UHGV virus genome: UHGV-0181186
DNA length: 41,148 nt
Direction: 5' to 3' (one strand)
Source: a virus
The position numbers and the translations under genes are program-made. The notes under the pieces are model-generated. The model was not told where the DNA came from and ran no database searches. It was given only the letters and a program-made list of their open reading frames with translations. Of this stretch, positions 15,271 through 15,934 are shown one piece after another. Every line of letters starts with the position of its first letter. Position 1 is the stretch's first letter.

Positions 15271-15352
15271 CGGGGCGTATCTCAGCGGTCTTCTAAACCG
15301 CCGTTAACCGAGTAAGTGGAGTATGCGGGTTCGAGTCCTGCCGCCTCGACCA
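15271..15352 (+). tRNA. noncanonical tRNA-like gene, anticodon TCT (Arg) with no recognisable D-arm
   Basis: Acceptor cggggcg/cgcctcg plus ACCA, perfect anticodon arm gcggt-cttctaa-accgc, T-arm gcggg-ttcgagt-cctgc; only 7 nt between acceptor and anticodon stem, and a 23-nt variable region. Confidence 0.45.
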
Positions 15353-15366
15353 ATTTTGGAGAAATC

Positions 15367-15714
15367 ATGAAAACTTGTATTAGGTGCAAACTTAGCAAGG
15401 ATGAAAATGATTTCTACATGAAAGATGGTAGGAGAACTCATTCATACTGTAAAAAGTGTGTTAATGAGCAAACCATAGAAAGACAAAGAGCACTTAAACT
15501 CTTAGCTATTGAGTACAAAGGTGGGGTTTGTCATGATTGTGGTAAGAAGTATCATCCAGCAGTGTATGACTTCCATCATTTGAATCCTTCAGATAAAGAT
15601 TTTAACATTGGTCATAGGAAAAGCCTTAAGTTCTCTCAAGAACTAAAAGATGAACTTGACAAATGTGTTTTGCTATGTTCAAATTGCCATAGGGTAAGAC
15701 ATGCAAAATATTAG
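15367..15714 (+). CDS. HNH endonuclease (homing-endonuclease-like)
   Basis: CxxC…CxxC zinc-binding pairs (CIRCKL, CKKC, CHDCGK, CSNCH) and HH…N…H HNH motif; GGAG RBS; the ORF-track 5' extension overlaps a tRNA and was trimmed. Confidence 0.8.
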   Translation: MKTCIRCKLSKDENDFYMKDGRRTHSYCKKCVNEQTIERQRALKLLAIEYKGGVCHDCGKKYHPAVYDFHHLNPSDKDFNIGHRKSLKFSQELKDELDKCVLLCSNCHRVRHAKY

Positions 15715-15851
15715 TTAGCAGATTACTTAGACGACCTTAGCGGGTCTTCCTGTAGGGAGGTGGTCTGTATCTCATGTTTTCCAGAACATGTAAATAATCT
15801 GAGAAGGGGCTTTACAGTGTTGAGATAATACGGTAAGCTTCGAATTATAGT

Positions 15852-15934
15852 ATGGGACGATGTTAAGACTCTAAGGCATGAGCAACGGCTTCCAACACCG
15901 TTTCAAAGGGGTTCAACTCCTCCGTCCCATGCCA
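15852..15934 (+). tRNA. noncanonical tRNA-like gene with 9-nt anticodon loop (cttccaaca, contains CCA)
   Basis: Perfect 7-bp acceptor atgggac/gtcccat plus G and CCA; T-loop ttcaact; anticodon arm aacgg-cttccaaca-ccgtt has a 9-nt loop; D region unresolved. Confidence 0.4.

Follow-up and report, generated by a model that had tools for sequence, protein, structure and literature searches.

The 41,148-nucleotide (nt) virus genome UHGV-0181186, referred to here as the window, carries two tRNA-like genes of unusual architecture: element 1, a non-canonical tRNA-Arg(UCU) gene on the + strand at 15271-15352 (including the discriminator A15349 and an encoded CCA at 15350-15352), and element 2, a non-canonical tRNA-Trp(CCA) gene, also on the + strand, at 15852-15934 (including G15931 and CCA). 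Comparative analysis makes it probable that element 1 is a functional tRNA-Arg with a non-cloverleaf fold and that element 2 is a working variant of tRNA-Trp(CCA). Four helices of element 1 were proven by covariation, i.e. the acceptor, the anticodon stem, the T stem and a new helix, P2. Because P2 encloses the anticodon arm, element 1 has no D hairpin and forms a three-way junction of the acceptor, the P2 plus anticodon helix and the T arm. Host RNase P and 3' nucleases would release element 1 from the array transcript, the host arginyl-tRNA synthetase (ArgRS) would charge it, and it would serve in translating the AGA-rich phage genes, its UCU anticodon reading AGA and probably AGG. A first-pass annotation had offered three readings of the two genes, i.e. 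degenerate pseudo-tRNAs, tRNA mimics or unusual decoders. The last is the best supported by the comparisons reported below (a canonical-tRNA slot, synthetase features and AGA as the main arginine codon), and the pseudogene option is contradicted.

Helices and fold of the tRNA-Arg(UCU) gene

All parts of element 1 lie on the + strand. The acceptor stem is formed by CGGGGCG (15271-15277) and CGCCTCG (15342-15348) and has seven base pairs (bp), one of them G-U; the acceptor had been described as perfect, which this pair corrects, while A15349 and the CCA stand. The anticodon arm (GCGGU, loop CUUCUAA, ACCGC; 15285-15301) has its stem strands at 15285-15289 and 15297-15301 with the anticodon TCT at 15292-15294, and the T arm (GCGGG-UUCGAGU-CCUGC; 15325-15341) has a canonical T loop, both in agreement with the first-pass annotation. 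The spacer from the acceptor to the anticodon stem measures only 7 nt (15278-15284), and a further 23 nt (15302-15324) lie on the 3' side of the anticodon arm. These two lengths and the absence of a D arm had also been reported correctly; what had been overlooked is that CUC of the spacer pairs with GAG downstream, in what had been called the variable region, as a helix that would stack on the anticodon stem. P2 is read as C11-G42, U12-A41 and C13-G40 (15281-15283 with 15310-15312), its 5' strand C11 U12 C13 plus A14 occupying 15281-15284 and its 3' strand G40 A41 G42 occupying 15310-15312, with both strands assigned from the same covariation. On the 3' side the eight-nt stretch CGUUAACC (15302-15309), whose last base may pair with A14, leads from the anticodon stem to P2, and the connector UAAGUGGAGUAU (15313-15324), which contains UGGAGUA, joins P2 to the T arm.

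Covariation was measured in two sets of sequences. The viral set comprised 59 distinct sequences, a part of which had been retrieved by patterns fixing C11, C13, G40, G42 and GGAGUAU. Changes on both sides were observed for 16 pairs, none of 500 shuffles reached the observed score, and pairing was 90% in the proposed register as compared to 35–47% in shifted registers. An independent metagenome set of 81 distinct sequences was derived from a scan with at least 120 matches, for which the search pattern was anchored in the connector and T loop only, leaving P2 and the anticodon untouched and positions 13 and 40 free. Again, none of 500 shuffles matched the observed covariation. In the element 1 family, all seven acceptor pairs exhibited changes on both sides (99% of cells paired), all five anticodon-stem pairs covaried, and three of the five T-stem pairs did so, with the UUCRA T loop and its closing G-C being kept. 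Among the 80 listed metagenome sequences, P2 pair 12-41 was never unpaired (U-A in 36, G-C in 26, A-U in 14 and C-G in 4), and neither was pair 13-40 (C-G in 61, G-C in 10, U-A in 7 and U-G in 2). The same four combinations, with none unpaired, were found for position 12/41 in the viral set. Positions 14 and 39 were A·C, C·A, A-U, C-G, U·G or U-A in 78 of these 80 metagenome sequences and probably form a fourth P2 pair.

The long helix made up of P2 and the anticodon stem is interrupted by a bulge of 7–8 nt (CGUUAAYN). This stretch (15302-15309) has the consensus C-R/U-U-U-A-A-N-N in subfamily A, as the part of the family with GGAGUA after P2 is termed here, and is only 2–4 nt in the divergent members L111, L141, L199, L207 and L228. 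The strands of P2 read like an ordinary D stem (U8 A9 U10 C11 U12 C13 A14 ... G A G U), and the connector UGGAGUA resembles the D-loop segment U17 G18 G19 A20 ... A21. In effect, the anticodon arm of element 1 appears to sit inside a would-be D loop, with the GGA motif moved behind the 3' strand of the D stem. The D-stem-like 5' strand (U10 C11 U12 C13 A14) would run directly into the anticodon stem and pair past the bulge with G40 A41 G42, producing one long anticodon-side helix. With 3–4 P2 pairs, a possible U10·U43 layer and the 5-bp anticodon stem, this helix would approach the ten layers of a D stem, position 26 and an anticodon stem. The single-stranded UGGAGUA leading to the T arm would then supply the equivalents of the G18/G19 contacts to the T loop and of A20 for ArgRS. 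G48 G49 A50 G51 U52 A53 U54 was invariant in set A3, where the search pattern partly fixed GGAGTAT.

Two other pairings were considered and rejected. In the first, UCUC would pair with the later GGAG (15318-15321), which was invariant while position 12 takes all four bases. The second, a small CCG/UGG hairpin in the minimum-energy fold of element 1, would take up G40 of P2 and G48/G49 of the invariant connector, and it is P2 that the covariation proves. Element 1 is also not an overlooked standard cloverleaf. With default settings ARAGORN called no tRNA at 15271-15352 or 15852-15934; for element 1 it found nothing at the 80% threshold and only a nonsensical fold at 60%, and the relaxed search advised in the first-pass annotation thus left it without a cloverleaf. 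The Rfam tRNA model (RF00005) scored element 1 at 31.7 bits (gathering score 29) with an alignment in which the D arm was deleted and 20 nt were inserted in the variable region. Element 1 possesses the 7-bp acceptor, A73, CCA, a 5-bp T stem with a UUCRA loop, and a 5-bp anticodon stem with the 7-nt loop CUUCUAA (U33, purine at 37) of a cloverleaf; it lacks a D hairpin of its own, for which only 7 nt are available.

The 82-nt element 1 query matched 263 phage records, and the family extends to about 600 phage records plus many metagenome contigs. Carriers were found in Felixounavirus, Demerecviridae (Sugarland, Kamaji), Asteriusvirus and other jumbo phages, Justusliebigvirus, Stephanstirmvirinae, Mydovirus and other Vequintavirinae, and Streptomyces phages. 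The gene is almost never annotated (one record has ‘tRNA’ and one ‘tRNA-OTHER’). Pattern scans of IMG/VR yielded about 80 family loci. Among 185,579 genomes of bacteria and archaea that were scanned, there were only five family matches, every one on a metagenome-assembled contig, and an origin in bacterial genomes or prophages was rejected on these counts. A covariance model, R1, was built from 59 distinct sequences and scored element 1 at 98.2 bits, members at 83–101, divergent members at 50–77 and canonical tRNAs at no more than 35. We take element 1 to be a structural variant of tRNA with a fold that appears to be new for phages; searches of the full-text literature for phage tRNAs that lack a D arm or are atypical in other ways brought up nothing of this type. 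A catalogue of viral structured RNAs contains a motif, DNAVirus_2961, that is said to overlap ARAGORN tRNA-Arg calls ‘sometimes’ and that may be this family.

Similarity searches identified a further 340 records of a second group, subfamily B, with the same D-hairpin-less tRNA-Arg(UCU) layout (e.g. L026:4664-4743, L266:301-368, L267:301-384 and L268:301-369), carried by Escherichia phage Av-05 and by Vibrio, Acinetobacter, Aeromonas and Salicola phages. Among the rows listed, none was annotated as a tRNA, the entries being ‘none’ or an overlapping hypothetical protein. Its P2 has 5 bp and covaries (CCCAC/GUGGG, CCAGC/GCUGG, CCAAC/GUUGG), its anticodon stem has 6 bp, and AAGGA follows P2 where subfamily A has GGAGUA. 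By eye, an 8-bp acceptor and a 4-bp T stem were apparent in the arginine members from four phages. Decayed copies of the family also exist, as shown by one locus (L055:6111-6183) that retains the acceptor 5' strand, P2, anticodon arm and bulge, then runs into unrelated sequence without a connector or T arm.

Arginine identity, allelic replacement and competing explanations

The immediate surroundings of both elements (15023-16292) were 99.2% identical to Escherichia phage vB_EcoM_Alf5 and matched 266 phage records, nearly all of which were Felix O1-like (Ounavirinae, Felixounavirus); the window comes from a Felix O1-like phage. Alleles were compared for 24 Felixounavirus loci, an alignment that the first-pass annotation had proposed and that identified each element as an allele of the canonical tRNA-Arg(UCU) or tRNA-Trp(CCA) of sister phages. 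In the slot between tRNA-Ile(gat) and tRNA-Ser(tga), element 1 and a canonical 77-nt tRNA-Arg(tct) never occurred together, one of the two being present at each locus, and next came one of a second pair, element 2 or the canonical tRNA-Trp(cca) of 71 nt. Only the tRNA body was exchanged in the arginine pair, since the flanks were identical up to the tRNA ends, and the gene behaves as a cassette that in Felix O1-like phages replaces exactly the canonical tRNA-Arg(UCU) gene body. Among near-identical Felixounavirus genomes, the anticodon stem was the most variable part of both arginine alleles, with changes that were always compensatory. It was GCGGU/ACCGC, GCUGU/ACAGC or UCUGU/ACAGA in element 1 and ACGGU/AUCGU, AUGAC/GUCAU or GUGCC/GGCAC in the canonical allele (L005, L010, L011, L020), which suggests diversifying pressure on the anticodon arm.

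In the listed metagenome alignment, about 70 anticodons were UCU, with CCU in four, UCG in three, ACG in three and CCG in one; UCG and ACG were also present in divergent viral members. No non-arginine anticodon was detected in the family in scans that left the anticodon free. The discriminator was G or A in 94% of the same alignment, all anticodons keep C35 with U36 or G36, and GGA was present in every member. The identity elements of E. coli ArgRS are C35, U/G36, A/G73 and A20. The features of the family match these elements, the assignment of A20 being our inference. Other parts relevant to translation are retained, i.e. the 12-bp acceptor/T branch, the UUCRA T loop, U33 and A37, with CCA being encoded in most copies. 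RNase P, EF-Tu and the enzymes that modify T54/Ψ55 depend on the acceptor/T branch and the T loop, both of which are standard in element 1. AGA and AGG are both rare codons in E. coli. In the long open reading frames (ORFs) of the window, AGA accounts for 226 of 414 arginine codons (54.6%) and AGG for 11%. Neither Arg(UCU) nor Trp(CCA) is among the 25 + strand tRNA genes called by ARAGORN between 13632 and 19204. A true canonical Arg(tct) accompanied the family member at only two of 85 loci, and four other ARAGORN ‘Arg(tct)’ calls at these loci were the family member itself, mis-drawn. The Felix O1 genome paper reported that a tRNA for AGA was expected, yet not found (PMC3185647).

Several observations weigh against a functional tRNA-Arg. 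The single-sequence folding energy of element 1 is no better than that of shuffles (z = 0.04). The invariance of C11, C13, G40, G42 and GGAGUAU in the viral set arises by construction, and the top anticodon-stem pair (15-31) was a C·U mismatch in 34 of the 80 listed metagenome members. E. coli ArgRS relies on A20 of the D loop, for which A50 as the equivalent is a guess, and the proposed conservation of the anticodon-to-CCA distance comes from counting stacked layers. We know of no demonstration that a D-hairpin-less tRNA works with bacterial ArgRS, EF-Tu and ribosomes. Finally, conserved arginine anticodon loops would be equally expected of a decoy for an arginine-tRNA-specific nuclease.

Both RNAs might indeed be look-alikes that act outside translation as decoys or sponges, absorbing or misleading a host factor directed against tRNA-Arg or tRNA-Trp (e.g. 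an anticodon nuclease or a tRNA-modifying toxin), or else nuclease-resistant replacements that go unrecognised because of their altered core. The strictly kept anticodon loop within a remodelled body would fit such a role, as would the restriction of the family to phages, and the variable, compensated anticodon stems of both arginine alleles are what would be expected if a factor recognising the anticodon arm exerted selection on them. In line with this, it has been proposed that some phage tRNAs evade defences directed at tRNAs (PMC10264068). A decoy, however, would have no need for G/A73, a 12-bp acceptor/T branch, an encoded CCA and a canonical T loop together, nor for diversification among five arginine anticodons. 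Element 1 moreover takes the place of the canonical tRNA-Arg(UCU), instead of being added to it, in a phage with AGA as 55% of its arginine codons, and no arginine-tRNA-specific phage defence was identified in this analysis. We consider a decoy unlikely; the ‘resistant replacement’ version is compatible with a functional tRNA-Arg and is not a rival to it.

The gene next to element 1 raises a second explanation. A free-standing HNH endonuclease gene encoding 115 amino acids lies at 15367-15714 (+ strand), its ORF starting 14 nt past the CCA, and the first-pass annotation was right that the two genes abut. The match to Pfam PF01844 was weak (17.6 bits, below the cut-off of 21.4), and public records name the product HNH or endonuclease VII. 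The gene is an optional insertion of about 356 bp that is precisely bounded, extending from the CCAATTT that ends element 1 to AGTTAGCAG, and it is precisely absent in nataliec and other phages, some of which have element 1. A weak nuclease motif, exact presence or absence and a tRNA-gene neighbour, as expected of a homing endonuclease, were thus all observed. About one-third of family copies have an ORF of at least 60 amino acids within 90 nt downstream, and in about one-third HNH families and other ORFs begin 5–40 nt downstream. Two or more HNH families that are not related to each other are represented among these ORFs, besides other candidates; one is the type of the window (115–119 amino acids) and another is HNH_3 (170–190 amino acids; Sugarland, PHA46, Kamaji and others). 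An obligatory link between element 1 and one endonuclease family was rejected on this basis, most copies having no such ORF. Taken with the exact swap of alleles, the associations suggest that homing endonucleases use or carry the element 1-type tRNA gene and probably help it to spread, and such use or carriage would explain the 82–90% identity of the family across unrelated phage families.

The odd tRNA bodies could on this evidence be by-products of homing, i.e. cleavage-resistant target variants that are co-carried with HNH genes and whose structure is tolerated. The HNH enzyme would cut a competitor's normal tRNA gene, and repair would copy in the HNH gene together with the variant tRNA. 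This fits an optional, precisely bounded HNH gene only 14 nt downstream, the swapping of the tRNA body alone, the presence of the 115/119-amino-acid HNH only beside element 1 and never beside the canonical arginine allele at the loci examined, and the unrelated HNH_3 at the same place in Sugarland, PHA46, Kamaji, L025, L056 and L086. It also fits a reverse case in which a canonical tRNA-Trp with an HNH-like ORF replaces element 2. However, about two-thirds of family copies have no close downstream ORF, no cleavage site is known, and covariation over very distant phages and two subfamilies implies selection on the RNA itself. Homing would explain spread but not the retained arginine identity features, and as an account of the structures it is, by a little, less likely still than a decoy.

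A processing or regulatory signal, in which an RNase P/RNase Z site would release or stabilise the endonuclease mRNA or neighbouring tRNAs without any decoding, is very improbable. An intact acceptor/T-arm minihelix of the kind recognised by RNase P, an HNH start codon close downstream and a promoter-like site 205 nt upstream are all in keeping with it, but such a signal needs neither a conserved arginine-only anticodon loop, nor covariation in the anticodon stem and P2, nor allelic exchange with a real tRNA, and most copies have no adjacent ORF. Decaying pseudogenes left by turnover of the tRNA array are scarcely credible: the array does hold clear tRNA remnants (14564-14615) and both elements are rejected by standard tRNA finders, but the covariation counts contradict this reading, as hundreds of copies in unrelated phages keep every helix by compensatory changes and long single-stranded motifs are invariant.

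The tRNA-Trp(CCA) variant and the surrounding array

Element 2 is interpreted as a tRNA-Trp(CCA), confined to Ounavirinae, with an insertion 5' of the D stem and a C·A-closed anticodon loop. The earlier outline of this gene was sound, including the perfect 7-bp acceptor (AUGGGAC/GUCCCAU) followed by G and CCA; a 3-bp D stem (15869-15871/15880-15882) had been missed and the anticodon CCA (15892-15894) had not been named. Between the acceptor and the D stem lies the insertion AUGUUAAGA (15860-15868, + strand), where a normal tRNA has 2 nt. These 9 nt were invariant in all ten element 2 variants, including that of Pectobacterium phage Arno18, and have no counterpart in normal tRNAs. The D arm (15869-15882, + strand) consists of CUC, the loop UAAGGCAU and GAG; its middle pair was U-A in six sequences and A-U in four (i.e. 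CUC/GAG vs CAC/GUG), and its third pair was C-G or U·G. In the anticodon arm (15884-15902, + strand) the stem AACGG/CCGUU is followed by a C·A that closes UUCCAAC. The nine-nt loop CUUCCAACA reported previously is present, but is better read as the 7-nt loop of a tRNA-Trp closed by C·A. Four of the five stem pairs covaried (AACGG/CCGUU vs GUAAG/CUUAC and GUAGG/CCUAC), the C·A was never a standard pair (C·C in Arno18), and the inner loop was CUCCAAA in sister phages.

The T arm of element 2 (15908-15922, + strand) has 4 bp (GGGG, UUCAACU, CCUC) with a flanking A15907·C15923 mismatch, and its first stem pair was G-C in eight sequences and U-A in two. C15923 can pair with G15859, extending the acceptor stem to 8 bp; this G8-C pair is present in the minimum-energy fold and never varies. 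The acceptor and T stems may therefore be of 8 and 4 bp, the alternative being 7 and 5 bp with the A·C mismatch. Across the ten distinct sequences, eight pairs were changed on both sides, pairing was 99.5%, covariation was observed in all four helices, and none of 500 shuffles reached the observed covariation. Compared with a cloverleaf, element 2 has an acceptor of 7 or 8 bp, G73, CCA, an anticodon arm of five pairs with UUCCAAC closed by C·A, a partly regular T arm (four pairs plus A·C) and a 3-bp D hairpin displaced by the 9-nt insertion. The Rfam tRNA model produced no match even at E ≤ 10, and ARAGORN missed the gene in default mode and called Trp(cca) in mitochondrial mode. Bacterial tryptophanyl-tRNA synthetase identity is matched by A1-U72 (or G·U), G73 and the anticodon CCA, all of which element 2 possesses. 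It was found in 236 phage records, all Ounavirinae except for a few with inconsistent organism names, and a wider distribution was rejected since a pattern scan gave only Ounavirinae-sized contigs. Element 2 may be a tRNA-Trp tuned for altered decoding (e.g. UGA read-through), although a role in read-through is speculation.

Three further observations concern the two elements. Both contain GUUAA in an extra single-stranded segment 5' of a D-stem strand (15303-15307 and 15862-15866), in the contexts CGUUAACC-GAG in element 1 and AUGUUAAGA-CUC in element 2; this may be due to chance, or the two genes may have a tertiary motif or a site for protein binding in common. In VpaE1_ev78 (L001:3336-3825), L012 and L015, element 2 is replaced by the canonical 71-nt tRNA-Trp(cca), with a short D loop, followed directly by an ORF of 134 amino acids with weak HNH-like Pfam matches, a mirror image of the pairing of element 1 with HNH. 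In the SUSP2-like phage of L020 (at about 4206-4330 and 4560-4730) and also in L024, two extra insertions are placed after the canonical tRNA-Arg and after element 2. They end with a good T arm, an acceptor 3' strand and CCA (...GTAGGTTCGACTCCTACCTTGACTGCCA and ...CAGAGGTTCAAGTCCTCTGAGGGGTGCCA), each contains about 60–120 nt of additional internal sequence, and they may be further non-canonical or intron-bearing tRNA-like genes.

Upstream of element 1, by about 205 nt, is a promoter-like site (TTGACA-17-TATAGT; 15038-15066, + strand) that matches at 11 of 12 positions, the best sigma-70-like match within 13400-19400, and that does not vary among Felixounavirus alleles; it is a candidate only. 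The leader of about 200 nt that follows (15067-15270) is conserved across these alleles and contains no convincing ORF. Matches of 15023-15269 to tmRNA-like Rfam models were dismissed as noise (15–16 bits against a threshold of 47). A long imperfect hairpin with sub-threshold matches to plant microRNA precursor models occupies 16183-16292, immediately upstream of tRNA-Leu(tag), and a motif like that of this hairpin (CUUUCUAAGAGAG...CUUUAAAG) precedes element 1 at about 15243-15265. Apparent tRNA debris (14564-14615) lies in the 430-nt gap between tRNA-Asp and tRNA-Lys and is kept in several Felixounavirus loci. It comprises a T-arm-like hairpin (GAAGG-UUCGAUU-CCUUC; 14564-14580), ACUCGGC (14581-14587), the complementary GUCGAGU (14592-14598) after 4 nt, and a D-arm-like GUGU-AAUGGUA-GCAC (14601-14615). 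With its 3' half preceding its 5' half, this debris represents either the remnants of two tandem genes or a permuted arrangement. Also inside the array is an ORF of 185 amino acids (17286-17843) with homologues, again near tRNA genes, that are 58–63% identical in contigs of 121–180 kb (one in a 121-kb contig is 78% identical); this ORF looks like a conserved companion of phage tRNA arrays.

Significance and comparison with known systems

Charging and use of element 1 would mean that bacterial-type translation can do without the cloverleaf. A tRNA lacking the D hairpin would then work with unadapted ArgRS, EF-Tu, RNase P and ribosomes, which bears on the rules of tRNA structure and function and on the design of orthogonal tRNAs. 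A broader proposition seems to us evenly balanced, namely that phages of many bacterial phyla carry a second working tRNA architecture outside mitochondria, in which arginine tRNAs have a helix around the anticodon arm in place of the D hairpin and are served by ordinary ArgRS and ribosomes. Their remodelled core might also put these arginine tRNAs out of reach of a host factor by which normal tRNA-Arg is disabled. That the family is confined to arginine, is linked to homing endonucleases and has anticodon stems that evolve fast points to conflicts over tRNA-Arg that have yet to be explored. In hundreds of sequenced phages, Felix O1 among them, the apparent lack of a tRNA for the most frequent arginine codon arises only because tRNAscan-SE and ARAGORN do not see the gene, and there is therefore a systematic gap in phage tRNA censuses and codon-adaptation analyses.

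The closest counterpart by position is the canonical tRNA-Arg(UCU) of sister Felixounaviruses and of E. coli (argU). Element 1 shares with it the slot, the loop CUUCUAA, G/A73, a 7-bp acceptor, a 5-bp T stem with UUCGA, and the sequences UCUC...GAG and UGGA. In contrast to the canonical tRNA, the anticodon arm of element 1 lies between the D-stem strands, GGA follows the D-stem 3' strand, and the body is unalignable outside the anticodon and T loops. The tRNA arrays of T4- and T5-type phages carry free-standing homing endonuclease genes. The window resembles these in having a small HNH ORF between tRNA genes that is present or absent in near-identical genomes with precise bounds, but differs in that the neighbouring tRNA gene has two structurally different alleles and that this tRNA type recurs beside unrelated endonuclease families in unrelated phages.

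An acceptor of 8 bp with a T stem of 4 bp, 12 bp altogether, is possible for element 2 and subfamily B and recalls the 8/4 tRNAs (allo-tRNAs and phage tRNA-Ser/His), which are reported from phages (Mukai et al., PMC5389517). The latter differ in that a D arm is present and the variable arm is usually long, and they are of Ser, His, Cys and Sec types, with neither tRNA-Trp nor tRNA-Arg mentioned among them in that paper. Another likeness is to the 267 bacterial tRNA-Trp genes with an anticodon stem opened at the bottom that were reported, and left unstudied, in a work that demonstrated UGA read-through only for stems opened at the top (PMC13092985). The conserved C·A of element 2 formally adds 2 nt to the loop in the same way; in contrast to the bacterial genes, element 2 has five standard pairs above the mismatch, a 9-nt insertion and a phage origin.

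The shape of element 1 is otherwise known only from animal mitochondria. In human mitochondrial tRNASer(GCU), the nucleotides that replace the D arm pair with those 3' of the anticodon stem, producing an extended stem, and there is no tertiary core (PMC9427863). The absence of a D hairpin and the extended anticodon helix, evident in element 1 from the covariation of P2, are shared with this tRNA-Ser(GCU/AGY) type. Element 1, however, is encoded by bacterial viruses and not by organelles, has a bulge of 7–8 nt in its extended helix, carries identity features for arginine instead of serine, and would need to function with unadapted bacterial ArgRS, EF-Tu and ribosomes. It also keeps a canonical T loop and an invariant connector containing GG, which suggests that the elbow is preserved. 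Element 1 would thus be like the mitochondrial tRNA-Ser(AGY) type in one respect without being a member of it.

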